Sequence record: NC_028847.1
Direction: 5' to 3' (one strand)
From: Escherichia phage QL01
DNA length: 64,000 nucleotides
Numbering within the stretch: position 1 is the first letter of the stretch; each line of letters opens with the position of its first letter. The position numbers and the translations under genes were made by a program. The notes beneath the pieces were generated by a model. That model ran no database searches. It saw only the letters and a program-made list of their open reading frames with translations, and was not told the DNA's origin. This document shows, in pieces, positions 3,277 to 32,004 of the stretch.

Positions 3277-3306
3277 CATTCAAACAATGAAGTCAAGGAG
3301 TTTAGA

Positions 3307-3888: not shown

Positions 3889-3889
3889 G

Positions 3890-3897: not shown

Positions 3898-3905
3898 GAA
3901 TTATC

Positions 3906-3923: not shown

Positions 3924-3945
3924 ATCCCATTCATCGGAGACTCTA

Positions 3946-6828: not shown

Positions 6829-6831
6829 ATA
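6824..6831 (+). promoter_or_regulatory. late promoter TATAAATA (gene 22)
   Basis: Motif overlapping gp21 stop codon. Confidence 0.55.
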
Positions 6832-6858
6832 TTATTATCTAAACAACAGGACTACAAA

Positions 6859-7674: not shown

Positions 7675-7695
7675 TTTAATAAGGTTATACAACAC

Positions 7696-9255: not shown

Positions 9256-9270
9256 GATATAACCTTATTA

Positions 9271-9290
9271 TGGGAGACTTCGGTCTCCCA
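9271..9290. terminator. bidirectional UUCG-tetraloop hairpin terminator after gene 23 (UGGGAGAC-UUCG-GUCUCCCA)
   Basis: Perfect palindrome followed by T-rich tract; lies between convergent gene 23 and the minus-strand small ORF. Confidence 0.65.
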
Positions 9291-9304
9291 TTCTTGTTTC
9301 TGTA

Positions 9305-9571
9305 TTATGCAATCTTAACTCGGCGGTTGATGATATCACGGAAGTCAATACGATTTTCTTGGATTTTCAGCCAGTTACCAGATTTGTCTTTGGTATGGGT
9401 AGAGTATTCACCGTTCCACCAGAAGTCGGTAGCATAAGCCATGGCTTCGTATTTCTTAACTAAGGCATTCACTGCATTACCATTAGGATTGTTACCGAAT
9501 TTTTCTACCAGAGCTTTGATGTCTTTATCAAGAGCGGAAAGAGTAGTACGAATAAAGTTTAACTTGTTCAT
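9305..9571 (-). CDS. hypothetical protein (early-promoter small ORF antisense to capsid genes)
   Basis: ORF with GAGGAG SD before internal ATG (MNKLNFIRTT...); preceded on minus strand by GTTTAC-N18-TACTAT promoter; no recognisable family. Confidence 0.55.
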   Translation of the reverse strand: MNKLNFIRTTLSALDKDIKALVEKFGNNPNGNAVNALVKKYEAMAYATDFWWNGEYSTHTKDKSGNWLKIQENRIDFRDIINRRVKIA

Positions 9572-9600
9572 TTTTAATCTCCTCATGTTTTGATAGGTCT

Positions 9601-9630
9601 ATAGTAACATGTGAGAATCTTGCTGTAAAC
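9601..9630 (-). promoter_or_regulatory. early promoter GTTTAC-N18-TACTAT (drives 9305..9571 ORF)
   Basis: Motif on minus strand; same extended TACTATAGACCTATCAA pattern as other early promoters in window. Confidence 0.55.
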
Positions 9631-9636
9631 AACTTT

Positions 9637-9644
9637 TATAAATA
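9637..9644 (+). promoter_or_regulatory. late promoter TATAAATA (gene 24)
   Basis: Consensus about 30 bp upstream of gene 24 ATG. Confidence 0.6.
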
Positions 9645-9672
9645 AACATATACCCTCAATAAGGAAAGCGCA

Positions 9673-10956: not shown

Positions 10957-12236
10957 TGTCTAAGATTGTAGACCTAATTAAAGAATCCACATTGACGGCT
11001 GCCAGCTCGGTTGGCCGTCCTGCTCTTCTTTCATACACCCAAGCAACTAATAAACGAATCTTTAAAGCCCTAGTTGCTGAACAAAAAACAAATCAACCGG
11101 TTGCTGCTCTGTATGGGGTACGTGTACTGAATCCTGACGACAAAATGACTTATCTTGGTGGAGCAACATTTGCGGGCCAGATTGGTATGACGGAACGTGA
11201 AAATATTCCAGAATTTACTGATTCATCTACAGCTTATGCGGTCGGTGATATGTTCCAGTTTGAAAGCGTAGTGTTTAAAGTTCTAGAAGCATCTCCTTTC
11301 GCCGGAACCACAGAAACCAACCTCAGCGAAGTTATTTCTGAAGCAGTGGCAGCCGGCCATATCCGTATGGTGTCGGATGCTGCTATTACTTCTAAATTTG
11401 AACAGGGCCATCCTGAAATTGCTGAAACCGGATTCCGTATCGACAAATGGCAATCTGAAGTTAAATCACGTAAACTGAAAACTTCATTGACAGTCGAATT
11501 AGCCCAAGACCTAGAATCTAACGGGTTTAATGCTCCTAATTTCGTTGAAAATCTGCTAGGCATTCAAATGGCAGAAGAAATTAATAAGGATGTATTACAG
11601 TCATTAATTACCGTGAGCTCTCGTTTTAAAGTCCAGGGTGTTTCTGAAAAGGGTGTATTAGACCTTACCAACCCTCGCTACGATAATGCCCAGGACCGTG
11701 CTCGCACATTATATTATTATATGTGTGAGATGAACTCTGCCGTCCAACGACAGACTTCTTTTGCCGGGACTTATGCAGTAGCTAGTTCTCGTTGTGCTGC
11801 TATTCTCGCCGCCTCTGGTTGGGTTGAGAAAAAGGAAGACCAGGACGAATTGGCTTATGGTATATTAAAGAATGGCCTACCACTTTATGCTGATATGAAT
11901 AGTCCATGTGATTATGTTATTGTTGGTGTAAATGCCCAGATGGGTGAAGGACAGACGGTCGCATCTTTATATTATGCGCCTTATACGGAAGGTTTGAATG
12001 TGGTTGACGAAGAAGGTGATACTTCAGTTGGTGAATTTAAGGTTATTGTTGACCCGGAAAGCTTACAACCTACAGTAGCATTGCTTGCTCGTTATGCATT
12101 GACTGCAAACCCTTATACCGTCGCTAAGGACGATAAAGAAGCCCGCATTATTGATGGTTCTGATATGGACAAAATGGCTAATCAAAGTCAATTGAGTTCT
12201 TATCTCGGCGTAAAATTACCGCCTTTAGAAAAATAA
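10956..12236 (+). CDS. capsid vertex protein gp24 paralog (divergent tandem copy)
   Basis: 426 aa, collinear similarity to the upstream gp24 (KSRKLKT.LTVELAQD.ESNGF.AP.F.E.LL, VLQSLITVS.R.KV.GVS, YYAPYTEGL, YAL.ANPYTVAKDDKEAR.ID) but clearly diverged; ATG overlaps gp24 stop. Confidence 0.9.
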   Translation: MSKIVDLIKESTLTAASSVGRPALLSYTQATNKRIFKALVAEQKTNQPVAALYGVRVLNPDDKMTYLGGATFAGQIGMTERENIPEFTDSSTAYAVGDMFQFESVVFKVLEASPFAGTTETNLSEVISEAVAAGHIRMVSDAAITSKFEQGHPEIAETGFRIDKWQSEVKSRKLKTSLTVELAQDLESNGFNAPNFVENLLGIQMAEEINKDVLQSLITVSSRFKVQGVSEKGVLDLTNPRYDNAQDRARTLYYYMCEMNSAVQRQTSFAGTYAVASSRCAAILAASGWVEKKEDQDELAYGILKNGLPLYADMNSPCDYVIVGVNAQMGEGQTVASLYYAPYTEGLNVVDEEGDTSVGEFKVIVDPESLQPTVALLARYALTANPYTVAKDDKEARIIDGSDMDKMANQSQLSSYLGVKLPPLEK

Positions 12237-12257
12237 AAGGGACCGTAAGGTCCCTTT
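12236..12257. terminator. GNRA-tetraloop hairpin (AAAGGGACC-GUAA-GGUCCCUUU) between convergent gp24 paralog and rnlB
   Basis: Perfect 9-bp stem, T-rich downstream on plus strand. Confidence 0.65.
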
Positions 12258-12262
12258 ATCGT

Positions 12263-13270
12263 TTATTTGGATACTAGTTCAATCCATACATGTCTTAATG
12301 TTTCTTTTACGCACTCAACGAGCTGCTTTTTAACTTCAACGGGATTTTCCGCATCAGTTAATTCCAATTCTTCACGGGCGGCTTCTTCAAGGATATCCTG
12401 GACTGTCAAGCCCATCACCTTTCCGAAATCCTTCGGCGATACTTCGCCAATCTTACTGATGACATTGTTAATGCGGTTAACAGTCACATAATCGGTGAAT
12501 TGCCACATCAAATCCATATCGTCTTGGGACAATACCACTGCAACTTTAATAGGCTTATCAGACTTTTTCTTCTCGCTGAATTTAGAGTTCTTACATTTAA
12601 TCGCCACACGATTTCCGTTTGGAAGCCAGAGCGGATAACAAGGTTTTAATACGTACCCTTCAGCGGTAAATACTTCACCTTTTACTTCAGCATTCCACAC
12701 ATAGGCATTAGCTTCAATTAGCCCGACGTTATCTACCATAAAATTATAATCAGGAAGGACGGAATCTAAATCATTTGGCAATTTAATAAGGTCTTCAAAT
12801 TTACCACGTCCTAAAAGTGGAGCCAGTTTAAATCCAAAGGTCTTACAAAATGATTCCATCATATAATCATCGACATAGGTCACATCACCACTTTCGGTGG
12901 TAACAATAATGTCAAATACATAAAAATCTTTAGCACCGTAATCAACATTCTTCTGAATGCCTGTTCCAGCGAATTCACCGAAAACTTGATAAGATACAGC
13001 TGCCGAAGTTTCCATAATATCTTGTACGGCTTTAATAGAATCGGCATAGTTCTTAAGTACAATTTCATAGCCATAGAAATCTTCAGCAGGGAGGATAGGG
13101 CCAGTGCGCTTGGCGCATGTGACTGCGTCACGTTCTATGATTAAACTAAAGTTGGTTCCATGAATCTTCTCACGTGCTACCCATTCACCACCAGTCAAAC
13201 CATTAGTACGGAGTTTTTCGATAAACTTACTGTTGTAGTGGTTTTCGAGACTGCTATATTTCTTGAACAT
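12263..13270 (-). CDS. rnlB: RNA ligase 2 (RnlB)
   Basis: 335 aa; KIHGTN nucleotidyltransferase motif I; position after gene 24 as in T4 (gene 24.1). Confidence 0.9.
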
Positions 13271-13356
13271 AAATCACCATAATAAATATAATTAAATAGA
13301 AGAGCTAGTAGTCTTCTGTCACCAAGCCAAATGGTTTAACGGAAGGACCTAGACCC

Positions 13357-13382
13357 ATTATATCACACCTAAATTTAAAGCA
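13357..13382 (-). promoter_or_regulatory. candidate MotA-dependent middle promoter (TGCTTTA box, 13 bp, TATAAT) upstream of rnlB
   Basis: Motifs read on minus strand; spacing consistent with T4 middle promoters. Confidence 0.35.
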
Positions 13383-13384
13383 TA

Positions 13385-13594
13385 TTACTTTGAACTAGAA
13401 CGCGCTTTGCGCCGAACCTTGTTGTTCAATCTTTTACGATAAACAACCTTTTCTTTCGCTTTAAATTTGGCCTTGGCTTGTTCTACATCAACCCATGCTT
13501 TGGCCATGTCCTTAGCGGTCCCGCCCATTTTTTTAGCAATTTCTATAAAATTCAACCCAGATTCGTGTAAAAAATGTACTTTAACCTTATCCAT
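13385..13594 (-). CDS. hypothetical small basic protein, possible HTH (T4 24.2/24.3 position)
   Basis: Internal ATG (MDKVKVHF...) with GAGAGA SD; lysine/arginine-rich C-terminus. Confidence 0.5.
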   Translation of the reverse strand: MDKVKVHFLHESGLNFIEIAKKMGGTAKDMAKAWVDVEQAKAKFKAKEKVVYRKRLNNKVRRKARSSSK

Positions 13595-13666
13595 AACAAT
13601 TCTCTCGTTGAGTTGGTAAACCCATCTTAACATAGAATTTTTAACTTGTAAACAGGAATTTTGTAC

Positions 13667-13686
13667 TTTAATGCAAAATGGGCCTT
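13667..13686 (-). terminator. hairpin terminator after hoc (AAUGGGCC-GCAA-GGCCCAUU on minus strand)
   Basis: 8-bp stem seen in sequence, U-rich tract follows on minus strand. Confidence 0.55.
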
Positions 13687-13697
13687 GCGGCCCATTA

Positions 13698-14546
13698 TTA
13701 ATAAATGTAATCGTATATAATACCAGCTTCTAAAGCGGTGCGATGAATAATTCGACCATTACGAGATTCTTGTACATCAACCTCTGAATAGTCGGTAATC
13801 ATTTTTTGAAGTGTATATCGGTGCAAATAATACGGGCTATCCGGGTCATCTGTTTTCCAGTCTTTGCCTTCAAGAGTCATTTTCTGGATTTCATCCATAA
13901 CCCACCAACCAACCCAAATATATGCTGAATTACGAACAGGGAGTGGATGAACGTAAGGTAATTCGCCATCCAGAACCGGTGCGACTTTAGCCGTGACTGT
14001 TACATTACCGGTTTTTGTGACAGTCGCCGGGTTATAATCAGTCGCCGAAACCACAACAGAAACTTCAATAACCTGTGAACCTTCAGTGCTTGTATCGATT
14101 GCTAGAGTATCCGTGGTGCCAACTACAGGAGAACCGTCTTTCTTCCAAGAATAGGCAAAAGTAGCACCAGCAGGAGCGCCGACCACATCCGCTTTAAAAG
14201 AAGCTGGAGTGCCTTCCGGAACATTAATCGAAGCTGGGGTTAATGTCACAGAAACACCAGTCATAGTTTTATTCTGGATAGTTAAAGTCGTCTCAGCTTC
14301 AGCAGTTTCCGGTTCGCCGTCCGCTGGTGTAGTTGTTGCAACAACTTTAATAGTCTTGCTGCCTGCTGGACCAACAGCAACATAATCCATTGCAGCAGTC
14401 ACAGAAGATTGAGGAACGCCATCAACAGTCCAGACAAATGATTCAGTACCTTCAGCTGCAGCACCGGAACCGGTCGCAGTGAAATTGGTTGTTGCTCCAA
14501 TAACGGCCGTAGCCGCCGAAGGAGAAATATCTACGGTATAAGCCAT
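13698..14546 (-). CDS. hoc: Hoc outer capsid decoration protein (short form, two Ig-like domains plus capsid-binding domain)
   Basis: 282 aa; Ala/Thr/Val-rich Ig-like repeats then conserved C-terminal block (HPLPVRNSAYIWVGWWVMDEI...) ; position before inh. Confidence 0.85.
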   Translation of the reverse strand: MAYTVDISPSAATAVIGATTNFTATGSGAAAEGTESFVWTVDGVPQSSVTAAMDYVAVGPAGSKTIKVVATTTPADGEPETAEAETTLTIQNKTMTGVSVTLTPASINVPEGTPASFKADVVGAPAGATFAYSWKKDGSPVVGTTDTLAIDTSTEGSQVIEVSVVVSATDYNPATVTKTGNVTVTAKVAPVLDGELPYVHPLPVRNSAYIWVGWWVMDEIQKMTLEGKDWKTDDPDSPYYLHRYTLQKMITDYSEVDVQESRNGRIIHRTALEAGIIYDYIY

Positions 14547-14555
14547 AATAAACCC

Positions 14556-15227
14556 TTATTTTAAAGTGACAAAAGATGAGTTACGAGTTTCTCGTACTAG
14601 AACAGACCCATTACGATTGATGTAATAAATCAAGCTGAATAGTGTTTGGTGTGCGGTAGGATGTTGGAAACTGGTTGGACGTTCTTTCCAATCCGGAGTC
14701 TCAGAAATCCATTGGTAAATCCACCAAGGAACGGTGCAATAACCTGGGTTCTTACCGATAAGCAAAAGATTAGGACTGAAGTTTTCAGGTAAAGAGAATA
14801 CAGGTTTTTCAGATTCAACAACCTTGGCTATAGCCCCTTTGAATTTCTCTTCGTCAAATGGAACATCCTCTTCGATAATCTCTACCTTAGGAAGTTCGGC
14901 TACCTCAACGACTTCTACTGCAGCCTCAGGGGCATCGAACAACAGGGTGGCTTCTTCTTTAGCTGGTTCAGCACCATCAACAAATTCGTTAGCACCTGTA
15001 AGTTCGTCGGCAGCATCAATCAAATCAGAAATGGACAACCCTTCGGTTTCTGGGAGTGGTTCGTCAGCCAAGGCTTTAAGGCCTTCAGAGATATCGATAA
15101 TCAAATTATCAAACGAACGGGTTTTCTTAAGTTTTAAACCGAACTGTTCGCCGTATTCGATTAACTTAGCTTTAGCTTCTTTTTTATCTTCGAGTGCACG
15201 AAGCTCTTCAATATATTGAGTATCCAT
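14556..15227 (-). CDS. inh: Inh, inhibitor of prohead protease gp21
   Basis: 223 aa; size and position between hoc and uvsW match T4 inh. Confidence 0.8.
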   Translation of the reverse strand: MDTQYIEELRALEDKKEAKAKLIEYGEQFGLKLKKTRSFDNLIIDISEGLKALADEPLPETEGLSISDLIDAADELTGANEFVDGAEPAKEEATLLFDAPEAAVEVVEVAELPKVEIIEEDVPFDEEKFKGAIAKVVESEKPVFSLPENFSPNLLLIGKNPGYCTVPWWIYQWISETPDWKERPTSFQHPTAHQTLFSLIYYINRNGSVLVRETRNSSFVTLK

Positions 15228-15246
15228 AATTAGTCTCTTGTTGGTG

Positions 15247-15254
15247 TATAAATA
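15247..15254 (+). promoter_or_regulatory. late promoter TATAAATA (uvsW)
   Basis: Consensus about 28 bp upstream of uvsW ATG. Confidence 0.55.
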
Positions 15255-15260
15255 TAACTA

Positions 15261-15268
15261 TATTTATA
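15261..15268 (-). promoter_or_regulatory. late promoter TATAAATA on minus strand (inh/hoc)
   Basis: Reverse-complement consensus in the same divergent intergenic region. Confidence 0.5.
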
Positions 15269-15282
15269 ACTGAGAATTACTT

Positions 15283-16779
15283 ATGCAAATTCAAGTACAT
15301 TTTGATAATTTTAGTCATGTCCGTATTGAATGCGATGAATCTACATTCTACGAACTCAGAGACTATTTTAGCTTTGAAGCTGATGGATATAAATTCAACC
15401 CTAAATTTCGTTATGGTCAATGGGACGGACGTATTCGCCTTCTGGATTACAACCGTAAACTTCCTTATGGATTGGTCCCTCAAATTAAAAAGTTCGCTGA
15501 ACAATTTGAATACTCTCTGTGGATTGACCCACGTATTCTTGAACAGGAAGATATTTCTCGTGAAGATTTTGATTCATGGGTGGCTTCTCAAGAAATTTAT
15601 TCAGGGTCTACCAAGATTGAGCCTCATTGGTATCAGAATGAAGCCGTATACAACGGCCTGACAAAACGTCGCGCAATTCTGAATTTACCTACATCTGCAG
15701 GTAAATCATTAATCCAGGCACTCCTGAGTCGATATTACGTTGAGAACTATGAAGGTAAAATCCTCATCTTAGTTCCTACTACTGCACTTGTCGACCAGAT
15801 GATTAACGACTTCATCGATTATCGTCTGTTCCCTAAAGCCGCAATGCTTGGTATTCGTTCAGGTACTGCTCGTGATTCCGATGCAATGATTTATGTTTCA
15901 ACTTATCAAACCGCTATCAAGCAACCTAAAGAATGGTTTGCTCAGTTCGGTATGTTTATGAACGACGAATGCCATTTGGCTACAGGTAAATCTATTTCTA
16001 CTATCATCGAAGGCCTAACCAACTGTATGTTTAAATTCGGTTTGTCTGGTTCTTTAAAAGATGGTAAAGCTAATTTAATGCAATATATGGGTTTGTTTGG
16101 TGATGTGTTTAAGCCAGTATCCACCTCCCAGTTAATGGAAGAAGGACAGGTTACTGACCTTAAAATCAACAGTATTTTCCTTCGATACCCAGACGAATTC
16201 ACGGTTAAAATGAAAGGTAAAGATTACCAATCAGAAATCAAGGTCATTACTAAGGCTACTCGTCGTAATAAATGGGTTGCTAATTTAGCTGTTAAACTCG
16301 CTAAGAAAGAAGAGAACGTATTCCTGATGTTTAAAAACATCGAACACGGTAAAACTCTTTTTGAAATGGTTAAAGAGCAACATAAAGAAGTTTATTACGT
16401 ATCAGGTGAAGTTAATACCGAAACGCGTAATGCTCTGAAAGTAATGGCGGAAAATGGTAAGGGTATTATTGTTGTGGCAAGTTATGGTGTGTTCTCTACT
16501 GGTATTTCCGTTAAGAACCTTCACCACGTTGTATTTGCCCATCCAGTAAAATCTAAAATCATTGTACTCCAGACAATTGGTCGTGTACTCCGTAAACATG
16601 CCTCTAAATCAACAGCACAGGTGTGGGATATCATCGACGACATGGGTGTTAAGCCTAAATCAGCTACGGCTAAAAAGAAATATGTTCATTTGAACTATGC
16701 CCTCAAACACGCTTTAGAACGTATTCAACGTTATGCTGATGAGAAATTTAATTACGTAATGAAACAGGTGGATTTATGA
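15283..16779 (+). CDS. uvsW: UvsW DNA/RNA helicase
   Basis: 498 aa; N-terminus (VHFDNFSHVRIECDESTFYELRD.FSFEADGYKFNP) and Walker A region (LNLPTSAGKSLIQALL) match T4 UvsW. Confidence 0.96.
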   Translation: MQIQVHFDNFSHVRIECDESTFYELRDYFSFEADGYKFNPKFRYGQWDGRIRLLDYNRKLPYGLVPQIKKFAEQFEYSLWIDPRILEQEDISREDFDSWVASQEIYSGSTKIEPHWYQNEAVYNGLTKRRAILNLPTSAGKSLIQALLSRYYVENYEGKILILVPTTALVDQMINDFIDYRLFPKAAMLGIRSGTARDSDAMIYVSTYQTAIKQPKEWFAQFGMFMNDECHLATGKSISTIIEGLTNCMFKFGLSGSLKDGKANLMQYMGLFGDVFKPVSTSQLMEEGQVTDLKINSIFLRYPDEFTVKMKGKDYQSEIKVITKATRRNKWVANLAVKLAKKEENVFLMFKNIEHGKTLFEMVKEQHKEVYYVSGEVNTETRNALKVMAENGKGIIVVASYGVFSTGISVKNLHHVVFAHPVKSKIIVLQTIGRVLRKHASKSTAQVWDIIDDMGVKPKSATAKKKYVHLNYALKHALERIQRYADEKFNYVMKQVDL

Positions 16780-17003
16780 AAACCTTTAAAGAAGTTATTC
16801 AAGAAGCATCTATTGAAAGCTTCATGGCTAAAATTGGTTCTTGTCAGACTATGGATGGTCTGAAGGAATTGGAAAAGTATTACAAAACTCGTAGTAAGGA
16901 AGCCGAACTTCGTGATTCGGATGATATTAGCGTGCGTGATGCATTGGCTGGTAAGAGAGCTGAATTGGAGTCGATGGACGACGAGGAAGAGGAAGATTTC
17001 TAA
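16776..17003 (+). CDS. uvsW.1: UvsW.1 small acidic protein
   Basis: 75 aa, ATG overlaps uvsW stop (ATGA), acidic C-terminus; T4 positional homolog. Confidence 0.8.
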   Translation: MKTFKEVIQEASIESFMAKIGSCQTMDGLKELEKYYKTRSKEAELRDSDDISVRDALAGKRAELESMDDEEEEDF

Positions 17004-17011
17004 ACAAAAAA

Positions 17012-17033
17012 GGCCCAACCTTTCGGAAGGGCC
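17012..17033. terminator. hairpin between convergent uvsW.1 and uvsY.-2 (GGCCC...UUUC...GGGCC)
   Basis: Stem with internal mismatch; A-run on plus side gives U-run on minus strand. Confidence 0.5.
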
Positions 17034-17062
17034 AATAACCATAAATGGCTATACACACTAGA

Positions 17063-17230
17063 CTAAAGTAGTAATTGGGTTTCGTTCAGCTGTTCTTCAG
17101 TGTTTTCCGTAACCGGCAAGCTTTGAACGTAATTATAGCATGAGCCCGGATGAACCGGACCTTTTTCTGTTTCAACAACCAATGCAGCATCGATTGGAGT
17201 TTTACAGACAACGCAAATCTTATCTGACAT
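17063..17230 (-). CDS. hypothetical small protein (uvsY.-2 position)
   Basis: 55-codon ORF read manually (MSDKICVVCKTPIDAALVVETEKGPVHPGSCYNY...), AAGGAGA SD 7 nt upstream; below ORF-track length cutoff. Confidence 0.55.
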   Translation of the reverse strand: MSDKICVVCKTPIDAALVVETEKGPVHPGSCYNYVQSLPVTENTEEQLNETQLLL

Positions 17231-17258
17231 GATTGTCTCCTTAGTTTAACTTACATAC

Positions 17259-17357
17259 CTATTTATTACTTGCTAAAGCAGCATTAATGAATTCTTGGAG
17301 AAGTTTCATCTTATCGGCATCTACTTTAATGGGTTTGGTATTTTTAGTACGTCTCAT
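17259..17357 (-). CDS. hypothetical small protein (uvsY.-1 position)
   Basis: 32-codon ORF (MRRTKNTKPIKVDADKMKLLQEFINAALASNK) whose ATG overlaps uvsY stop; manual read. Confidence 0.4.
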   Translation of the reverse strand: MRRTKNTKPIKVDADKMKLLQEFINAALASNK

Positions 17358-17791
17358 TATTTACCCGCCTCAAATTGTCTCATCTCATGCATGGTCTTAA
17401 GGTTAAAACCACGCGCCTTAATAGCATCAAGTGCTGAACTACAAAAGTCTTGTAATAAAGCCCAATACTGAATTGATGTGTCGATTTTAATTACACTAGA
17501 ATCCGCAGCCATAACGGTCTTTAATTCAGATTTCTCATATTGGTCCATACAAACCTCATCACCAGGCTCTCCACGTCCCGTGTAGAAATCTAATCGCTTC
17601 TTAAGTGAGGTCTTTTTCTGGATTTCTAATCTCATTATTTCTTTCTTACAATTCGTATACAGCCTTAGCCATTTGCTGTGCAGCAAAACGTTGTTCTGTA
17701 CTTCATATTGTAAACGAGTTCCATCAATCTTTAAATCCTCGTCTAATGCGTCCTGGAATGATTCTAACTTATATTCAATCTCTTTACTCAT
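17357..17791 (-). CDS. uvsY: UvsY recombination mediator
   Basis: Strong similarity to T4 UvsY (TRLQYEVQNNVLLHSKWL, KSELKTVMAADSSVIKIDTSIQYWALLQDFCSSALDAIKARGF); start moved to internal ATG (MSKEIEY...). Confidence 0.93.
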   Translation of the reverse strand: MSKEIEYKLESFQDALDEDLKIDGTRLQYEVQNNVLLHSKWLRLYTNCKKEIMRLEIQKKTSLKKRLDFYTGRGEPGDEVCMDQYEKSELKTVMAADSSVIKIDTSIQYWALLQDFCSSALDAIKARGFNLKTMHEMRQFEAGK

Positions 17792-17849
17792 CGCATGTTT
17801 CCTGTGTAATAACCATAGGACCATTATACACTATTCATTTGAACAGCAA

Positions 17850-18239
17850 TTAACCACTCTGTGAGAGCTGGATTCTAATTTGCTCTAATGTATCTGGGTC
17901 ATCAACGATACTAAACTGAACGGTCACGATAATCGAGTTATCATCGTACACAGGTGTCACACCTACAGCTAGAGCAGAAATTCTGGGTTCGAAGTTCCGC
18001 ACTGCGGAAACTATATTACGCTTAATGGTATCCGTGATTAATGGAGTAATATTCTCAAACAATTGGTTGCTGATGTCACAACCGAATTCAGGCATAAAAG
18101 GGCGCGAACCCTTGCGAGTAGTAATAATGCCTAACAAACTATTTTTTACTGCGCGAGCACCTGTAGCTTTAGCGACGTCTCTATTCCAAGACGTCCTCAT
18201 TTCAGGGTCTAAATCTGAATACATTTTATTGATATTCAT
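17850..18239 (-). CDS. 25: baseplate wedge subunit gp25
   Basis: 129 aa; NSLLGIITTRKGSRPF.PEFGCD.S.QLFEN.TPL matches T4 gp25. Confidence 0.95.
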   Translation of the reverse strand: MNINKMYSDLDPEMRTSWNRDVAKATGARAVKNSLLGIITTRKGSRPFMPEFGCDISNQLFENITPLITDTIKRNIVSAVRNFEPRISALAVGVTPVYDDNSIIVTVQFSIVDDPDTLEQIRIQLSQSG

Positions 18240-18862
18240 TACATCACCTTAAAGAACTCTTTAAGTCCCTCAATAACGTGGACGGTGTGTTCACCACATT
18301 CACAAGAAATAGGTATAGCCAAAATAGGCTTAGGGGCGACTAGTGCATCATAAACTTCTTTTATATCTTTTTCTGTTATCACAGAATAAAGGTCATCAAG
18401 TTCCGCATCGCTTAAATCGGAAAGAAAAAGCTTTTCACCTGCAGAAGTTAAAATATAATCGATACACCCGGCGACCATCATAGCTCTATTTTTATCTTCA
18501 AAGAGTTTAGGATATCTGAAAACAATTTTAAAGTTGCCAAAGTCTTTAATAACATCCGGCTCTTTACCCAATGTTGCTCGAGTTAGTGTCATAGGGACAA
18601 CCTGTGAGCGACCACAACTACAACTCCACTCACGTTCTATATTCACTTCAGCTAATGAATGGGCCCACAGGTTTATCACCAGGAGCTCAGATTCTTGCTT
18701 GTTTAAATCACGGGCATCTGTGCAATTCGAAATGAGTTCATTGATAAAGGACTCTATTCTGCCTTCTAATTTAGCTTGGAGCAAGTCCTTATATTCTCTG
18801 AGGGTAAATGCTCTGCATTTTATGGTTTTGTTTTTAATTTTTACGTCAAAAGTATAATTCAT
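18239..18862 (-). CDS. 26: baseplate hub subunit gp26
   Basis: 207 aa; position between 25 and 51, divergent from 51 as in T4. Confidence 0.85.
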   Translation of the reverse strand: MNYTFDVKIKNKTIKCRAFTLREYKDLLQAKLEGRIESFINELISNCTDARDLNKQESELLVINLWAHSLAEVNIEREWSCSCGRSQVVPMTLTRATLGKEPDVIKDFGNFKIVFRYPKLFEDKNRAMMVAGCIDYILTSAGEKLFLSDLSDAELDDLYSVITEKDIKEVYDALVAPKPILAIPISCECGEHTVHVIEGLKEFFKVM

Positions 18863-18880
18863 TGTCTTCTCCTTTAAGCT

Positions 18881-18892
18881 TATTTATAAATA
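18881..18892. promoter_or_regulatory. overlapping divergent late promoters (TATTTATAAATA) for gene 26 (minus) and gene 51 (plus)
   Basis: TATAAATA present on both strands in 12-bp palindromic element, as known for T4 genes 26/51. Confidence 0.55.
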
Positions 18893-18912
18893 CATCAATA
18901 AGAGGACACCCT

Positions 18913-19665
18913 ATGGCTAATATAGTACGTTGTGAAATGCCTGATGGAGTCCACCGATTTAAACCTTTTACAGTAGCTGATTATCGTGATTTTATTTTGA
19001 TTCGAAATGACATGAATAATAAATCGCCTGAAGAGCAAAAACAAATTTTAGATGAGTTACTGGAAGAATACTTCGGTGAATATCCTATGTCATGGCGCCC
19101 ATATATGTTCATTGAACTTTATACGTCATCACTCGGCAAGACCAAAATTCCTATCCGATACACTTGTAGTAAGTGTGAAAAGGATAGACAAGTTTTATTC
19201 AATTTGAAACAGACCAAGTTAGATAATCCCACAATTGAAGTGGCCGGCTTGAAGCTAACATTCAAATTTCCGGAAATAGAATATCAAGACAAATCCGAAT
19301 TGATTCTGAACACCCTCCAAACCGTGGAAGATGAAAACGGGAAATATAATTGGACTGACCTTTCTGAAGAAGACCAATTAGCCGTAATAGATGCTATAGA
19401 CTTATCCACTTTAGAGGATATAGTCAAACAAACTAGCCCTATTAATTTTGAACTAAAATATGGATGCTGTAATCGTAGAACAATTACGTATACCGATATT
19501 TTAGAGGTGTTTAAGCTTATAGTCAACCCGGATGAGATATTTTTATTTTACCAAATAAACCATTTATTGGTAAAGAACAATTATTCATTAGAAAGCATTA
19601 TGCAGATGATTCCAATCGAACGCGGTATTGCTTTGTCTTTGGTTGAAAAGGACCTTAAGAAATGA
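18913..19665 (+). CDS. 51: baseplate hub assembly catalyst gp51
   Basis: Track ORF starts at TTG 18862; first ATG ([16 protein letters not shown]...) gives 250 aa similar to T4 gp51 size. Confidence 0.85.
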
Positions 19666-25116: not shown

Positions 25117-25407
25117 TTATTTACGGAACGAAATGAAACCTGCTGCAGTCATTAATGGCTGCTTTTTAACAAAGACCGTGATAGAAATAGGAGCTTCAGA
25201 TTCGAGTTGTCCTGTCACTACACCGTTAAAAATGTTTTCGGTTTGTTCTGGATAAGAAAAATTCTCAACAGGTCGGATATCAAACTGTTTGTCTTCACCG
25301 AAAACTCGACGTAATTCATTACCTACGGCACTGTCAAACTCTTCGGAAGCAGGGATAACGTTTTCAACTACCAGTTCTTGACCATTAAAACGGAATGCAG
25401 ATTTCAT
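25117..25407 (-). CDS. hypothetical protein (alt.-x position, early promoter)
   Basis: 96 aa ORF with GAGGAG SD; GTTTAC-N18-TACTAT promoter immediately upstream overlapping alt stop. Confidence 0.6.
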   Translation of the reverse strand: MKSAFRFNGQELVVENVIPASEEFDSAVGNELRRVFGEDKQFDIRPVENFSYPEQTENIFNGVVTGQLESEAPISITVFVKKQPLMTAAGFISFRK

Positions 25408-25435: not shown

Positions 25436-25465
25436 ATAGTACCACATCCTTGTGGTGTTGTAAAC
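25436..25465 (-). promoter_or_regulatory. early promoter GTTTAC-N18-TACTAT overlapping alt paralog 1 stop
   Basis: Motif on minus strand upstream of 25117..25407 ORF. Confidence 0.5.
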
Positions 25466-27588
25466 TACATTTTGAATTTATTTGATAAAGAAGAGATATC
25501 CAAAGACGCGGCAAGGATTTCCATAGCTTCGTTGCTTTCAGAAACGGATTCATTAACCAAGAATTGACTAAATCCATCCATCAGGCGAACTTCACCAGTT
25601 TCCATCAAATGGTCACCATCGTAAACAGATTCGCTGAGCTCTGAAGGAGGCGTTACGGTAGCTTCCATAAGGTATTTGTGAGATACTCTATCATTCATGG
25701 CAAAAGCCGCTACTTTATCAACCTTCAACAATAATCCACGCGGAAGGATAATTTCTGCTTCTTCGGCATATTCTGTAAGGTCACCAGGAGCGATAACTTT
25801 AACTGCTTCAGCACCTCGAATAACCATACCAATTTCAGCAATTCTATCTGCAGGACCTTCAGGTGCAATTGGATTACCAAACTCGTCTTCTTCCCATTCT
25901 ACCTCTTCGTCATCGACTTCACCCACATCAGATGAACTACCACTAGCCAATTTAAACAACTCATCAGCGGAGGACAAAGAACCTTCACCACCAACAAAAA
26001 CGGCTTGGTTGTCGAGGGCCATATAATTTTTACCGAATTCACCAAAGATGTTAGGCTTTAATGAGGCTGACACAAAGTTCTTAAAGTAAAATGTTTTGTT
26101 ATCGATATTATGGCGCAGAATTTTGTATGGCAAATCCTGACCACGATACAAAATAGTACCCTTAGGAAGTTTAATACCCTTAGTAAATGCTGAGTCTAAA
26201 TCCTTAATCAATTTAATAGCCGTTGTATTGTTTTCGGATTCAGGTTTACCTAAAAGGAATAAGTTCATAGGAGCATATTCAGCCGCGCAATATTCAATAA
26301 TAGCATTGCTTTCGTCTTTGGTTAGGTCCTTAGGTTTAATGAGCTCGCCTGAATAAGCATATGCATCACTAATAGAATCGTTAACCAGTTTATAAACGGC
26401 TTCCATAGCGAAAGCAATTCTAGATGCTTTCTCTGAAGGGGAACCCTTAAAACGGGTACTCAGGTTATTAACAATTTTCTTAATAATATCCAGACTATTG
26501 GTTGTATTGATTTGCGAAAGGCCACTTAAAAGTCTATCGACTTCTGTATTAAAAAATGCCATATTATTAGAGTAAATTTCAAACCCTTGTTTATCTCTAT
26601 TAGCATAATTTAGTTTAAATTTACTATCAGTCATTAAAGCGTGTGTGAGAGCAATAGTGTATCTAAAGTTGGCAAGGTCCTCGCTCTTAGATTTAAACTG
26701 AGAAGCCTGACGCATTTTAGTAATGGCACCTTTTTTAAAGTTCTGACTAATCTGTTCAATACCTTCGTTCTCAGGGCCTTCAGCCGTGTGAACCGGTACA
26801 GAAGCTTCAAACTCGTTATAAACCTGCAATTCTTTAGGGGACAAAGTTTCAGGCTCAGCAGTAGAATACTGCGCGGCCGCAGCCATACGACGCGAAATCT
26901 TAGTACGAGAGATAACGGCCTTATCAGTACGTTTCTCTTCAACTTGTGCAATAGATGCCGCTACGGCTTCTACTTTACTTACGGCCTGGCCTGTTTTCTT
27001 AGAAACATACACTTCGCCAACTTTAGACTCAACTTTAGTATAAAGATCGGCATTAATTTCAGGCATACCCTTGATATCTTCAATATTAGCACCGCGACGT
27101 ACTAAAAGAACGTAGGTATGTTTTCCGCTGAATTGGAACATGTCGTCAACAACTTTAAACTTACCACCGGTACGAGCCATAGCCAAACGAGCTAATACGC
27201 GCTGAACGGTAGGACCTTTACCTTTCATTTTCTTAGTAGGGAAACGGAATAAAACCGCGTCCATTTTAAGTTTGATTATTTGTTCATATATGGTATCGAA
27301 AATGGTGTTCAGTGTACCGAGTGGATCGGTACCCAAACCACCCTTGAGTTCTGCCGGAGCGCCTTTAGCAGATAAACTCATTAAGATAACATGGACGTAC
27401 TTATCGCCATTTTTAACCATCTTAATAGCGTCGCCTTCGGACGCATAAGATACCATACGTGCTACTAAATTGTCATTACCAGGAGCATGTACCGCAAAAA
27501 TCTGCGGTACGCCTGAGCCAGGTTTAAGATTTGTTACCGGATAGTTTTTAGCGGAATCGCTATCAAAAACTTCGTTTAAATTTTCCAT
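25465..27588 (-). CDS. Alt-like ADP-ribosyltransferase paralog 1 (most divergent copy)
   Basis: 707 aa; first ~200 aa nearly identical to paralog 2 and collinear with T4 Alt; C-terminal ART region with YRGQ, FVSASL (variant of STS) and EAEIILPRG; acidic insertion. Confidence 0.85.
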   Translation of the reverse strand: MENLNEVFDSDSAKNYPVTNLKPGSGVPQIFAVHAPGNDNLVARMVSYASEGDAIKMVKNGDKYVHVILMSLSAKGAPAELKGGLGTDPLGTLNTIFDTIYEQIIKLKMDAVLFRFPTKKMKGKGPTVQRVLARLAMARTGGKFKVVDDMFQFSGKHTYVLLVRRGANIEDIKGMPEINADLYTKVESKVGEVYVSKKTGQAVSKVEAVAASIAQVEEKRTDKAVISRTKISRRMAAAAQYSTAEPETLSPKELQVYNEFEASVPVHTAEGPENEGIEQISQNFKKGAITKMRQASQFKSKSEDLANFRYTIALTHALMTDSKFKLNYANRDKQGFEIYSNNMAFFNTEVDRLLSGLSQINTTNSLDIIKKIVNNLSTRFKGSPSEKASRIAFAMEAVYKLVNDSISDAYAYSGELIKPKDLTKDESNAIIEYCAAEYAPMNLFLLGKPESENNTTAIKLIKDLDSAFTKGIKLPKGTILYRGQDLPYKILRHNIDNKTFYFKNFVSASLKPNIFGEFGKNYMALDNQAVFVGGEGSLSSADELFKLASGSSSDVGEVDDEEVEWEEDEFGNPIAPEGPADRIAEIGMVIRGAEAVKVIAPGDLTEYAEEAEIILPRGLLLKVDKVAAFAMNDRVSHKYLMEATVTPPSELSESVYDGDHLMETGEVRLMDGFSQFLVNESVSESNEAMEILAASLDISSLSNKFKM

Positions 27589-27591
27589 TAT

Positions 27592-29637
27592 TTACCCTTG
27601 GATGAATTTTTCTGGCGTTTCGTCAAAATTAATACATGAAGCTAAAATAGGCATTATATCCACCTTGGTCGATTTGACGAATGAATCAAAAGACACAGGG
27701 TTGTCGGTCTCTGTTTCTACGCCTTGGTAAACAACCAATTCGCCGGTTTCCATCAATGCATCACCATCATAGATAACCGCATTTTCTGCTAGTTGGTCTG
27801 TGGTCTGGATATCAGCTTCCAATAATTTGGTGTTGTAGTTTCCTTTATATGAGGCATCTGTAATTTTAGTAATCTTAACAGTAGTTCCACGTGGAAGAAT
27901 AACCTCTTGTTCTGTTGGAGAACCTGACAATTTACCTGGCACAATTACGTTAATAGAGTCTGCACCGGAAATTTTCCAACCGATGTTCATCATTGTATTT
28001 TCGGAACTCGTCAGCATACTTGGAAGAACAATTTCATTATCGCCTTGGAAAGATGTCCCAGCGCGATAGTCCTGATGAACTGCGGCCATTGCGACGTTTG
28101 ATACCCAGCCGCCAAAGATAATCGGCTTAAGGGACGTTGATACATAGTTCCTGAAATAAAACAATTTTGAGTGTTTGATTTTATCAAAAGTGTTAACATT
28201 TAAATATTGACCACGCCAAAGTGTAATATCAGGTGGCAATTTATGGCCAATTTCAAATGCTGCATCCATATCATTAATTACTTCAATTACACGATAACTA
28301 TCAATAAATTCTGCATCCTCTTCATAATAATTACCCAACAAATAATTATTAACATCGGTATAATATTGGCCACAATAAGAAGAAATAGCCTCACGCTGCT
28401 CATACTCAAATCGATTATCGCTATAACTGGCTGTAAAATGCATAACACTTTCTGACGCTTCATTAGCAAAGTCGGTAACAGCAGCACTTATACGTTGAGC
28501 ATACTCTTGTTCCCAAAGCTCTGCTGCATATTCTGCCGCATCCATATTAGGAGGAGCCTCATTCATTTTTCTTTCAATAAATGCAGCTTTGCGAAGGTTA
28601 AGAACCTCTGCACATGATTCGGCAAAAATCTGCATCTGCTTCATACTGCCGACAGGAGCACGTTTAAGTTCACGATGCATACGGTTAAAAATTGGGTCAG
28701 AGTCTTCGACTCGAATTTCTTCTTTCCAAACACCGTTTGCTCGCATAGCCATATCTGCCGCGCGCATACGCTCCATAGTATTCGTTTCAGAAGGTTGAAT
28801 AAAAATTTCTAGTTCTTCATAATCATCGATAAGTTCCGCTGTTGCTGGGGCACTAAATTTTGATGCCTCTGCATCAATCTCATTCCAACCTTCCGGAACT
28901 TCATCTCGAGGAGAATACTGGGCTGCGGCTACAGCACGCCTAGAAATCTTAGTAGTAGTAATAACGGCCTTATCCGTACGTTTTTCTTCGACTGCCGCTA
29001 TACTAGCAGATAGTGCTTCTATTTTGGTTACCGATTGGCCTGTTTTCTTGGATACATAAACCTCACCAACTTTAGACTCAACCTTAGTGTAAAGGTCTGC
29101 ATCAATTTCAGGCATACCTTTTATGTCCTCAATATTAGCTTGTTTACGGACCAGTAAAACGTATGTATGTTTGCCTGTAAATTGATACATATCATCGACA
29201 ACTTTAAACTTGCCGCCAGTACGAGCCATCGCCAAACGTGCCAATACACGTTGAACAGTAGGACCCTTACCTTTCATTTTCTTGGTAGGGAACCGGAAAA
29301 GAACTGCATCCATTTTAAGTTTGTTTACTTGTTCGTATACAGTATCAAAAATGGTATTCAGCGTACCAAGTGGGTCAGAACCTAACCCACCTTTCAACTC
29401 GGCTGGGCTACCCTTAGCAGACAAACTCATCAAAATAACATGAACATATTTGTCGCCCGGCTTAACCATTTTAATAGCGTCTCCTTGAGACGCATAAGAT
29501 ACCATACGAGCAACCAGATTATCATTACCTGGTGCTTGGATAGAGAAAATCTGTGGAATACCGGAACCCGGTTTAAGATTTGTTACTGGATAGTTTTTAG
29601 CGGAATCACTATCAAAAACCTCATTTAAATTTTCCAT
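27592..29637 (-). CDS. Alt-like ADP-ribosyltransferase paralog 2
   Basis: 681 aa; conserved N-terminal region, WRGQ, YVSTSL, EQEVILPRG motifs, C-terminus ...PEKFIQG as in T4 Alt. Confidence 0.88.
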   Translation of the reverse strand: MENLNEVFDSDSAKNYPVTNLKPGSGIPQIFSIQAPGNDNLVARMVSYASQGDAIKMVKPGDKYVHVILMSLSAKGSPAELKGGLGSDPLGTLNTIFDTVYEQVNKLKMDAVLFRFPTKKMKGKGPTVQRVLARLAMARTGGKFKVVDDMYQFTGKHTYVLLVRKQANIEDIKGMPEIDADLYTKVESKVGEVYVSKKTGQSVTKIEALSASIAAVEEKRTDKAVITTTKISRRAVAAAQYSPRDEVPEGWNEIDAEASKFSAPATAELIDDYEELEIFIQPSETNTMERMRAADMAMRANGVWKEEIRVEDSDPIFNRMHRELKRAPVGSMKQMQIFAESCAEVLNLRKAAFIERKMNEAPPNMDAAEYAAELWEQEYAQRISAAVTDFANEASESVMHFTASYSDNRFEYEQREAISSYCGQYYTDVNNYLLGNYYEEDAEFIDSYRVIEVINDMDAAFEIGHKLPPDITLWRGQYLNVNTFDKIKHSKLFYFRNYVSTSLKPIIFGGWVSNVAMAAVHQDYRAGTSFQGDNEIVLPSMLTSSENTMMNIGWKISGADSINVIVPGKLSGSPTEQEVILPRGTTVKITKITDASYKGNYNTKLLEADIQTTDQLAENAVIYDGDALMETGELVVYQGVETETDNPVSFDSFVKSTKVDIMPILASCINFDETPEKFIQG

Positions 29638-29640
29638 TAT

Positions 29641-31725
29641 TTACCCTTGGATGAATTTTTCTGGGATGTCATAGAGGTCTATGCATGAAGCCAAAAGAGG
29701 CAGTACATCAAACCGTGTAGATTTAACAAATGAATCAAAAGATAAGGGGCTTTCGGAAGTATCGAAGTCATCTTGATATACGACCAACTCGCCGGTTTCC
29801 ATTAGTACATCACCATCATATACCACAGATTCTTGAAGCTCATCTGTTGTCATAACTTCAGCTTGAATGAGTTTTGTATTACTAGATGTTGTTCCATCAT
29901 TATTAGAAGCATCTGTTATTTTATTAACTTTGACCATTAATCCACGCGGTAGAATAACTTCGGCTTCAGTTGCTATTCCGAGATTTCCTGGATATACGAC
30001 ATTAACTTTATGGGCCCCATCAATAGCCCATCCTATTTGAACTTTAACATAATCAGGATTTTCTTTATATGCTCTTATTTCATTAGGATTAATAGTTATT
30101 CCTTCTTCATTTTTATCGACTGTCAATTCATTGCGAACTTCAGGTTCTAAAAGACCGATACCAGCGTGCGTAACACCAAAACGTCCGAAAATTATAGGGG
30201 TCAATGAAGTGGATACAAAATTTCTAAAATAAAACACTTTATTTTTAACTAGTGCTTCGTATATAGGAGCAGTCATACTCTGGGCACGATAAACTGTGAT
30301 GCCCTCTGGTATACGGTCGCCATTTTCAAAAGCAGAATCCAAATTATTAACTGCAGATTCGATATCTTTTTCGCTCATAACCTCATAGTTCTGAGGATTA
30401 TAACGTCCTAAAAGAAGATTATTTATGTCTGTATATCCTGAACCACAATATTCTCTGATACCACGCTTTTGTGATGGAGTATATTTAGAACCCTCACGAG
30501 CAATAGTAATATCGACCATAATACCGCCACCTACACCAGCAAAACTATACACGCGTTTTTTAATGAACTTGGTCTTGGCCGCTTTCCACTTGGCCTCTGT
30601 CAATTCGTTCCAAAGGTCATCAGGTTGGCCTTTACGGGTTCTGTTATGAATAGCCAGCCACTCGCCTTTGTATTCTTCGAAAATGGTATTAATAGTAGAG
30701 GCATATTTTTCTAGGGCTTTAACAGATGTCAAAGGTTCGTTTTTGATGGCCGTAAGGATTTTCTCTTTAATTTTCTCTTGGATTTCGCCAATACCGTGAA
30801 GTGGGAACAATTTGTAATCGTAATGCAATTCTTCAGCAGTGCCTTCAGCCACTATATTAGCAACCTTATTTTTAGCCGCAGGAGAATTGTTATTAGTAAC
30901 CATTTCCTGAGCCTCAGGGATTAATGGAACTGTTGCCGGTTTATTAAAATCTACTGCAGTAGCTTCATATTTCTTAAACAGCTCACTTTCATTACGATAA
31001 GATTCTAACGATTGACTTGCTGCAATGGCACGTCGAGAAATCTTAGTCTTGGTTATAACCATTTTATCAGTGCGACGTTCTTCAACCTTAGCAATACTAC
31101 CGGCAATAGCAGTTTCTTTAGTAACCTGCATGCCTTCTTTTTTGGAAATATAAACTTCGCCGACATCAGAATCTACCTTAGTATACAATTCAGCATTAAT
31201 TCCAGGCATACCTTTGATATCTTCTATATCAGCTTGTTTACGAACTACCAGGATGTAAGTATGTTTACCGGTAAATTGGTACATAGCCGGAACTACTTTA
31301 AAACGTCCACCTGTTTTCTGTGCTACCAAACGTTGGATAATCCGTTGAACGATAGGGCCTTGACCTTTCATTTTCTTAGTAGGGAAACGGAACATCACGG
31401 CATCCATACGAAGCTTTTTAACTTGGTCATAAACCACATCAAAAATAGTATTAATCGCATCTACGGGAGTAGGGCCTAGGCCACCTTTAAGTTCGGCAGG
31501 CGAACCTTTAGCTGAAAGGCTCATAAGGATAACGTGGGCATATTTATCACCCATCTTAACCTGTTTAATAGCATCACCTTCAGAAGCGTAGGATACCATA
31601 CGCGCCACTAATTGGGATTCTGCGTCACCAATCTTCCAAATCTGGGGTACTTTAAGTTTTGGGTTCAAGTTTACTGTAGGCAGTGTGCCTTCGGACTCAA
31701 ACACTTCATTTAATTGTTCGGTCAT
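29641..31725 (-). CDS. alt: Alt ADP-ribosyltransferase (closest to T4 Alt)
   Basis: 694 aa; long blocks matching T4 Alt (KISRRAIA.SQSLES, PSQKRGIREY.GSGY.DINN.LLG, VFYFRNFVSTSL, EVILPRGLMVKVNKITDAS, ...KFIQG). Confidence 0.95.
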   Translation of the reverse strand: MTEQLNEVFESEGTLPTVNLNPKLKVPQIWKIGDAESQLVARMVSYASEGDAIKQVKMGDKYAHVILMSLSAKGSPAELKGGLGPTPVDAINTIFDVVYDQVKKLRMDAVMFRFPTKKMKGQGPIVQRIIQRLVAQKTGGRFKVVPAMYQFTGKHTYILVVRKQADIEDIKGMPGINAELYTKVDSDVGEVYISKKEGMQVTKETAIAGSIAKVEERRTDKMVITKTKISRRAIAASQSLESYRNESELFKKYEATAVDFNKPATVPLIPEAQEMVTNNNSPAAKNKVANIVAEGTAEELHYDYKLFPLHGIGEIQEKIKEKILTAIKNEPLTSVKALEKYASTINTIFEEYKGEWLAIHNRTRKGQPDDLWNELTEAKWKAAKTKFIKKRVYSFAGVGGGIMVDITIAREGSKYTPSQKRGIREYCGSGYTDINNLLLGRYNPQNYEVMSEKDIESAVNNLDSAFENGDRIPEGITVYRAQSMTAPIYEALVKNKVFYFRNFVSTSLTPIIFGRFGVTHAGIGLLEPEVRNELTVDKNEEGITINPNEIRAYKENPDYVKVQIGWAIDGAHKVNVVYPGNLGIATEAEVILPRGLMVKVNKITDASNNDGTTSSNTKLIQAEVMTTDELQESVVYDGDVLMETGELVVYQDDFDTSESPLSFDSFVKSTRFDVLPLLASCIDLYDIPEKFIQG

Positions 31726-31748
31726 AATAATTCCTCTTTAATAACCTT

Positions 31749-31756
31749 ATTTATGC
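31749..31756 (-). promoter_or_regulatory. late-promoter-like CATAAATA upstream of alt array
   Basis: 7/8 match to TATAAATA about 25 bp upstream of alt ATG; first base deviates. Confidence 0.35.
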
Positions 31757-31760: not shown

Positions 31761-31778
31761 AAAGGCCCGAAGGCCTTT
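31761..31778 (-). terminator. hairpin terminator (AAAGGCC-UUCG-GGCCUUU on minus strand) after 31780..32004 ORF
   Basis: 7-bp stem, UUCG loop, U-rich tail. Confidence 0.6.
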
Positions 31779-31779: not shown

Positions 31780-32004
31780 TTAAAGTACTAACAGCGTACG
31801 GTACACTTCAAATTTAGGACCCTTTTCATAGCGGTCGAAATTATCTTTAAAATCAGCGAACGCGATTTCATTTTCAAATTCAAGGACAATTTGGGACACT
31901 GCAGTGGAGACATCCCCACCTTCTTTATATCCAATAACCACGGTTTCTAAATAAGCTTTCATATTATAGACCAGTTTGAGACCAATCACCGAATACATCT
32001 TCAA
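31780..32004 (-). CDS. hypothetical protein
   Basis: 74 aa ORF between ligase and alt, followed by hairpin terminator; start may be internal ATG. Confidence 0.45.
   Translation of the reverse strand: MKMYSVIGLKLVYNMKAYLETVVIGYKEGGDVSTAVSQIVLEFENEIAFADFKDNFDRYEKGPKFEVYRTLLVL

Follow-up and report, generated by a model that had tools for sequence, protein, structure and literature searches.

What use would a T-even phage have for three Alt-like genes in a row? The question is raised by a locus on the minus strand of Escherichia phage QL01 (NC_028847.1), of which a stretch of 64,000 nucleotides, here called the window, was analyzed. Alt is the textbook case of an enzyme that enters the cell with the phage DNA, and what is known about it comes almost entirely from T4. 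About 40 copies of T4 Alt are held in the head and enter the host with the DNA, where the enzyme ADP-ribosylates the alpha subunit of RNA polymerase (Arg265) and other host proteins. A first-pass annotation of the window had described three packaged effectors with swapped middle domains, and had suggested diversified host targets or a counter-defence arsenal. Judged from its sequence, the array is real, intact and selectively maintained. On balance, the locus probably represents a tandem array of three functional paralogues of T4 Alt, i.e., arginine-specific mono-ADP-ribosyltransferases with differing effector cassettes. The three genes are the following:

25465..27588, minus strand: copy 1, 707 amino acids (aa); equivalent of JS98 altb (96%), of the RB14 alt.-2 type.
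27592..29637, minus strand: copy 2, the 'extra' copy, 681 aa; Dhakavirus-type N-domain with a cassette of the Gaprivervirus type (VR7/SP18 altb).
29641..31725, minus strand: copy 3, 694 aa; orthologue of the T2/RB14-type alt.

As read at first pass, these open reading frames (ORFs) are separated by spacers of 3 bp, and the ORF listing shows no internal stops. Frameshifted pseudogenes, named at that stage as a finding that would refute the reading, are not what the sequences show, the ORFs being intact here and in every relative examined. With a ratio of nonsynonymous to synonymous substitutions (dN/dS) of 0.04-0.17 for each copy against its orthologue in phage C6, all copies are, by this estimate, under purifying selection.

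All three copies are Alt-family ADP-ribosyltransferases (ARTs) of the predicted arginine type, with the catalytic residues intact. They pass the Pfam family PF03496 (ADP-ribosyltransferase exoenzyme, gathering cut-off of 23.4 bits) with 63.2, 74.9 and 124.8 bits. They also match PHROG 802, 'Alt-like RNA polymerase ADP-ribosyltransferase', from profile position 1 or 2 to 674 of 674 (E-values of 6e-249, 5e-255 and 2e-262). NCBIfam assigned no family to any of the three, and a sequence search of the PDB yielded nothing beyond weak matches (E about 1e-3) in the NAD-binding region of binary toxins. Another Pfam family, PF26846, is listed in precomputed annotations on every Alt homologue retrieved; the local Pfam copy did not report it for the window proteins.

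The anatomy of the proteins was derived from an alignment of the three copies with T4 Alt and two JS98 proteins, and from AlphaFold2 models of copy 1 (predicted local distance difference test, pLDDT, of 77) and copy 2 (pLDDT 82). Five parts are distinguished: a 6-7-residue N-propeptide ending in L-N-E, an alpha/beta N-domain reaching to about residue 240, an all-helical centre of ~180 residues, the ART domain, and an acidic C-terminal tail of 54-63 residues, which begins after an L-x-E motif. Parts, motifs and the predicted mature mass and isoelectric point (pI) are as follows:

Copy 1: N-domain aa 7-240; centre 241-428; ART domain 429-653; C-propeptide 654-707; catalytic Arg element YRGQ 481-484; STS element FVSASL 505-510; ExE element EAEIILPRG 610-618; mature protein 71.1 kDa, pI 6.0.
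Copy 2: N-domain aa 7-240; centre 241-416; ART domain 417-618; C-propeptide 619-681; catalytic Arg element WRGQ 474-477; STS element YVSTSL 498-503; ExE element EQEVILPRG 576-584; mature protein 68.3 kDa, pI 5.3.
Copy 3: N-propeptide aa 1-7; N-domain 8-238; helical centre 239-421; ART domain 422-632; C-propeptide 633-694; catalytic Arg element YRAQ 479-482; STS element FVSTSL 503-508; ExE element EAEVILPRG 587-595; mature protein 69.5 kDa, pI 8.8.

The ART-like end with its three elements, already noticed at first pass, is present in every copy (with S-A-S in copy 1). In an alignment of 82 homologues, S507, E610, E612 and LPRG are invariant and R482 is found in 81. The ART fold that marks the R-S-E clade of mono-ADP-ribosyltransferases (C3/VIP2/iota-like) is recognized here as well. 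The ART domains of the copies are ~40-55% identical, and a hypervariable insert separates their STS and ExE motifs. In copy 1, residues 517-580 (window 25849-26040) form a disordered, strongly acidic insert between these motifs (…GEVDDEEVEWEEDEFGNPIAPEG…), which lies within a local rise of G+C (0.43), with a GC skew of -0.24 at 25500-25999.

Packaging would follow the example of T4 Alt, where gp21, the prohead protease, cuts behind ITE-6 and LTE-619, as determined by mass spectrometry, and leaves a mature protein of 68.2 kDa (PMC5694885). A positional rule derived from T4 gives back 68.2 kDa for T4 Alt. The gp21 signal that the first-pass annotation had proposed to look for at the N-terminus is present in all three copies, between LNE (LNE-6/7) and VF, and a second motif is located near the C-terminus, between LSE and S, LAE and N, and LQE and S in copies 1, 2 and 3, respectively. 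Both sites have the form L-x-E across the 82 homologues: the N-site has L or I in 79 and E in all 82, and the C-site has L, I or V in 80 and E in 81. We infer that the three proteins are packaged and cleaved. An Alt-like ART has been found by proteomics in the virions of one Mosigvirus (PMC6563131).

A mosaic emerged from sliding-window comparisons and from typing the modules of 26 Alt proteins (11 genomes). The type of the N-domain tracks the phage genus; the centre (at least eight types) and the ART domain (five types) do not. Copy 3 and RB14 alt have ART domains of 92-97% identity and N-domains of only 25-58%, and copy 2 shares a centre of 73-100% identity with the single alt of Gaprivervirus VR7, their N-domains being only 26-52% identical. 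The reverse is seen between RB14 alt and T4 alt, with N-domains 97-100% identical, matching tails (87-97%) and centres of only 12-31%. Copy 3 and JS98 alta show this same pattern of like N-domains and unlike centres. The Acinetobacter phages ZZ1 and Henu6 have one alt copy in the form of two genes, one for the N-domain (~229 aa) and one for the remainder (~463 aa), which supports the N-domain as an independent module. When each gene is written as [centre type-ART type], the Dhakaviruses display at least four array configurations:

This window and C6: [A-A][B-B][C-C].
KIT01: [D-A][B-B][C-C].
WG01, E33 and ABTNLS3: [E-D][A-A][C-C].
JS98: [D-A][C-C].

WG01 (L007, 3442-9554), ABTNLS3 (L008) and E33 (L009) represent a second kind of three-copy array, with a 631-aa Alt upstream that has a different centre and tail and an 8-nt spacer. 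Next come a copy-3-type and then a copy-1-type gene, and the copy-2-type cassette does not occur.

The first-pass expression 'swapped middle domains' captured the exchange of modules, but drew the unit too narrowly. The ART domains diverge as well, so that the variation exceeds a 'middle': the exchanged unit consists of the centre plus the ART domain, set in a conserved frame of N-domain and C-propeptide. How such exchange may come about is suggested by the two junctions within the array:

29638..29660, minus strand: junction from copy 3 to copy 2, ...AAATTCATCCAAGGGTAA-ATA-ATG.
27589..27611, minus strand: junction from copy 2 to copy 1, identical to the former.

The two junctions have 31 identical nt in common, and the homology of their surroundings begins about 180 nt upstream and extends to about 720 nt downstream, so that copy 2 has a repeat of tail and N-domain on either side. 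At informative sites, JS98 altb is copy-2-like over the first ~200 nt and copy-1-like beyond, as would be expected if the N-domains of copies 1 and 2 had undergone a crossover or gene conversion. The array would evolve by homologous recombination through the conserved frame, which would add or remove cassettes and exchange them among slots and among T-even genera.

Neither the likeness of the N-domains nor the exchanges appear to be recent. The N-domains of copies 1 and 2 (window 26869-27570 and 28918-29619) have ~92% protein identity, but their synonymous sites are saturated (proportion of synonymous differences, pS, 0.60-0.74; of nonsynonymous differences, pN, 0.05-0.12), so the likeness points to strong constraint instead of recent duplication. 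This saturation might reflect selection against the recombinational loss of tandem copies; equally, it may reflect strong constraint from a common head partner. The cross-genus exchanges are not recent either, since shared cassettes differ substantially at synonymous sites (pS 0.27-0.54 and pN 0.014-0.045 for the ART domains of copy 3 and RB14).

Are the centres of the three copies related? The common Alt-like N-terminus, said at first pass to be nearly identical in copies 1 and 2 over ~200 aa, is borne out: identity per window is 77-100% over alignment columns 1-240, followed by an abrupt fall to 3-27%. The divergent stretch measures ~176-188 residues (aa ~241-428), shorter than the ~250 estimated. 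The centres had also been described as mutually unrelated, which could apply to copy 1 at most. A direct BLASTP among the three gave no match. The centres of copies 2 and 3 have many intermediate relatives in common and are diverged homologues, because their profiles align with an hhalign probability of 99.4% (E 1e-21, 163 columns). For the copy-1 centre, no similarity to the other two could be detected (hhalign probability <2%, as for reversed-sequence controls), and an exhaustive search of 1.8 billion representative proteins returned no homologue outside Alt proteins. Six matches to this centre were rejected: all consisted of many short stretches, and the two inspected were tandem-repeat junk ORFs repeating one short motif. 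The clustering of the protein set at 50% probably hides true copy-1-type relatives behind representatives with other centres. The structural comparison of copies 1 and 2 consists of secondary-structure collinearity and a shared target in BFVD. In the AlphaFold2 models, the helices of the copy-1 centre are collinear with those of copy 2 in number and length, and both models match one full-length Alt model (SP18 alta, BFVD) with template modelling (TM) scores of 0.64-0.77 over at least 654 columns. For these two reasons, extreme divergence of the copy-1 centre seems more likely than domain replacement.

The array is flanked by gp48/gp54 and the alt.-3 homologue (96 aa) on one side, and by alt.1 and the gp30 DNA ligase on the other. 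This order, gp54/alt.-3, array, alt.1/gp30, matches T4, JS98 and RB14 exactly. The elements surrounding the array are:

31780..32004, minus strand: alt.1 homologue, conserved neighbour upstream, given as context; Pfam Phage_blade PF24647.
31761..31778, minus strand: G+C-rich hairpin AAAGGCCTTCGGGCCTTT, directly past the alt.1 stop codon; position conserved in T4 and JS98.
31748..31755, minus strand: CATAAATA, probable late promoter for the whole array; site equivalent to the T4 TATAAATA upstream of alt.
31731..31739, minus strand: Shine-Dalgarno-like AAAGAGGAA, upstream of the copy-3 start codon.
25464-25436: sigma-70-like promoter with a TG-extended -10, the alt.-3 homologue's own; its terminator is at 25110-25087.
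25117..25407, minus strand: alt.-3 homologue (96 aa, DUF5498), conserved neighbour downstream, outside the ART array.

The mechanical ORF of the alt.1 homologue has 74 aa (TTG start), against 56-69 aa annotated in relatives. Upstream of copy 3, the hairpin is followed by CATAAATA; at the same place, T4 has the same hairpin followed by the late promoter TATAAATA. An exact TATAAATA does not occur within the array, the only variant being CATAAATA at the T4-equivalent position, and scans for sigma-70 promoters and terminators remained at background level there. At both junctions, AAGGG reads as a ribosome-binding site overlapping the end of the preceding gene. The three genes would be co-transcribed late, with separate translation starts. 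Over the window, the exact TATAAATA is found 16 times (6.6 expected). Eleven of these sites are on the plus strand of the first 19 kb (1-19000), and presumably serve late structural genes.

The proposed course of events starts with one late promoter upstream of copy 3, from which the three genes would be transcribed jointly, each with an AAGGG site of its own overlapping the preceding stop codon. By homology with T4 Alt, the precursors of 76-78 kDa would enter the prohead core by means of the conserved frame, made of the short N-propeptide, the alpha/beta N-domain of ~230 residues and the acidic C-propeptide of 54-63 residues. As the T4 data suggest, gp21 would then trim both ends at the L-x-E motifs present, yielding mature proteins of ~71, 68 and 70 kDa. 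These would be injected with the DNA and would ADP-ribosylate host proteins on arginine. The copies differ in the effector cassette, i.e., the all-helical centre and the ART domain with its variable loop, and therefore probably have different substrate ranges. Packaged, diversified effectors appear the most reasonable reading of the locus, because the catalytic residues are intact, both gp21 motifs are present and the genes are under purifying selection.

Several points weigh against this reading. Copy 1 carries S-A-S where S-T-S is expected, and the putative late promoter departs from the T4 consensus at its first base. For mature copies 1 and 2, an acidic pI is predicted (6.0 and 5.3), versus 8.4 for T4 Alt and 8.8 for copy 3, so their behaviour inside the DNA-filled head could differ from that of the latter two. 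In addition, different cassettes need not mean different targets, and in the literature searchable here no functional work on Alt paralogues and no virion proteome of a Dhakavirus was found, nor any expression or enzymatic data on the three proteins in this phage or its close relatives.

A wider interpretation is put forward tentatively. The T-even alt locus may be a cassette-exchange platform, in which a genus-specific packaging frame, made of the N-domain and the two propeptides that the protease removes, surrounds horizontally exchanged cassettes. Each phage would inject its own set of one to three ARTs. In the phage studied here, the acidic copies, 1 and 2, would be directed at something other than RNA polymerase, possibly at host defence proteins.

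It seems rather unlikely that all copies have essentially the targets of T4 Alt (RNA polymerase alpha Arg265 and other host proteins) and are alternative versions of it, providing dosage or robustness to host variation. The catalytic core and the overall architecture are indeed common to all copies, T4 thrives with one copy, its second being deleted, and T4 Alt is itself said to act on RNA polymerase and probably on further proteins (PMC5512222). However, strong purifying selection acts on each cassette despite an identity of only 5-45% between them, and the charge of the mature proteins differs markedly. Each cassette type has moreover been kept across genera as a distinct lineage, which is unexpected for redundant copies.

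A counter-defence arsenal, as raised at first pass, is likewise judged improbable. Copies 1 and 2 would then mainly inactivate host anti-phage systems or toxins at entry, and not reprogram transcription. Injected proteins do act ahead of any phage gene expression, cassette turnover and copy-number polymorphism at a locus are typical of conflict genes, and T4 Alt reportedly modifies the toxin MazF. In T4, moreover, mutant forms of the adjoining gene alt.-3 can block CmdTAC defence, and C-terminal extension mutants of Alt.-3 escape it (PMC11618068). But the sequences and models point to no particular defence target.

That one or two copies are no packaged effectors at all, but catalytically impaired, cytoplasmic or decaying duplicates heading to the T4 state, is very improbable: the second slot of T4 was lost by a 1.69-kb internal deletion, the middle copy is missing in JS98-type relatives, and copy 1 combines S-A-S with a 60-residue disordered acidic insert in its ART domain, but the ORFs are intact in every relative examined, dN/dS is low (0.04-0.17), neither the catalytic residues (R, S and E-x-E) nor the two cleavage motifs have been lost, and 444 phage records contain the copy-1 type.

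Multiple alt genes of this kind are common among the relatives. By megablast, the window belongs to a Dhakavirus, a JS98-like relative of T4, with 99% identity to LHE83 and ~96% to C6, fDHCT2 and MX01. The same three genes are present in C6, MX01, AnYang, KIT01, UGJNEcP3/4 and fDHCT2, annotated as Alt-like or as RNA-polymerase ADP-ribosylases, and in LHE83, whose record labels them hypothetical proteins. JS98, JS10 and IME08 have two genes, alta and altb. A tblastn search with the Alt N-domain hit 1819 places in 1200 phage records. The copy-1 centre was found in 444 phage records, 42 at an identity of at least 95% (those examined are Dhakavirus) and 402 at 45-48% (those sampled are T-even phages, e.g., RB14). 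In RB14, the match is the full-length 685-aa gene alt.-2, 3 bp after alt; by this count, some 400 T-even phages of the RB14 kind would possess two complete copies. The T4 record annotates alt.-1/alt.-2 as an old duplication of the alt start. This remnant (5034-5454 in L003) has 95-97% identity with two stretches of RB14 alt.-2 (3236-5360 in L005), the initial 351 nt and the final ~80 nt of that gene, with 1.69 kb missing in between. Because it matches both ends, T4 lost its second alt through a clean internal deletion of ~1.69 kb. The single alt noted at first pass is correct for T4 itself, but not as a general picture: T-even phages commonly have more than one alt, and T4 is the exception, having lost a copy.

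The array is therefore not new, being already present and annotated in sequenced relatives, with the duplication already in print. A duplication of alt in Ac42, JS98 and Bp7 and three Alt-like genes in ZZ1 were described in 2014 (PMC4177764), and three ADP-ribosylase genes of Dhakavirus LQ5 were listed without comment in 2026 (PMC12895675). The first-pass annotation, which implied novelty, had itself named the common presence of such copies in close relatives as a finding that would speak against it, and this is largely the case.

With T4 Alt, the array has in common the gene position, the overall architecture, the R, S-T-S and E-x-E motifs and both gp21 cleavage motifs. Copy 3 is the closest of the three, being ~66% identical to the T2/RB14-type alt. 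The differences are that three full-length genes stand here against one and a remnant in T4, that the centre of the T4 allele is only 21-32% identical per window to that of copy 3, and that mature copies 1 and 2 are acidic. Among other T-even arrays, two genes are found in JS98 (alta/altb), RB14 (alt/alt.-2) and SP18 (alta/altb), and three in C6, MX01, AnYang, KIT01, LHE83, WG01 and LQ5. Those of C6 and LHE83 hardly differ from the present array (96-99% DNA identity), the three C6 genes being annotated as RNA polymerase ADP-ribosylases. The centre of RB14 alt.-2 is 45-48% identical to that of copy 1. The junction type CAAGG(G/A)TAAAT(A/C/G)ATGGAA is common to this array, JS98 and T4, where it lies between alt and alt.-1. 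JS98 differs in being without copy 2 and in the other centre of its alta; WG01, E33, ABTNLS3 and LQ5 differ in having another third gene (631 aa), upstream instead of in the middle.

The T4 internal proteins IPI-III, which carry a capsid-targeting sequence, are similar in combining a conserved packaging and cleavage signal with variable injected cargo. Such a combination was suggested as a way for T4-like phages to package diverse proteins (PMC9026906). The IP signal is, however, a peptide of 10-20 residues, whereas the Alt frame consists of a ~230-residue N-domain and the C-propeptide, and the sequences are unrelated. Polymorphic toxins (Rhs, CDI and MuF-fused phage ARTs) also present a conserved delivery module followed by interchangeable enzymatic cassettes, recombining through the conserved parts. 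They differ from the alt locus, which is without immunity genes and without Rhs, PAAR or MuF domains, delivers via the phage head, and has a variable part that is in every case an ART of one and the same family. T4 ModA and ModB are small early proteins without N-domain, centre or propeptides. They belong to the same R-S-E ART clade, but are not injected from the head (PMC5512222) and are absent from this locus.

No new kind of system is revealed by the array, and its residual interest is modest, given by the pattern of cassettes in a frame. The functional idea of diversified targets seems reasonable as a hypothesis. Many relatives would inject two or three different Alt enzymes, whereas T4, the source of nearly all our knowledge, deleted its second copy.

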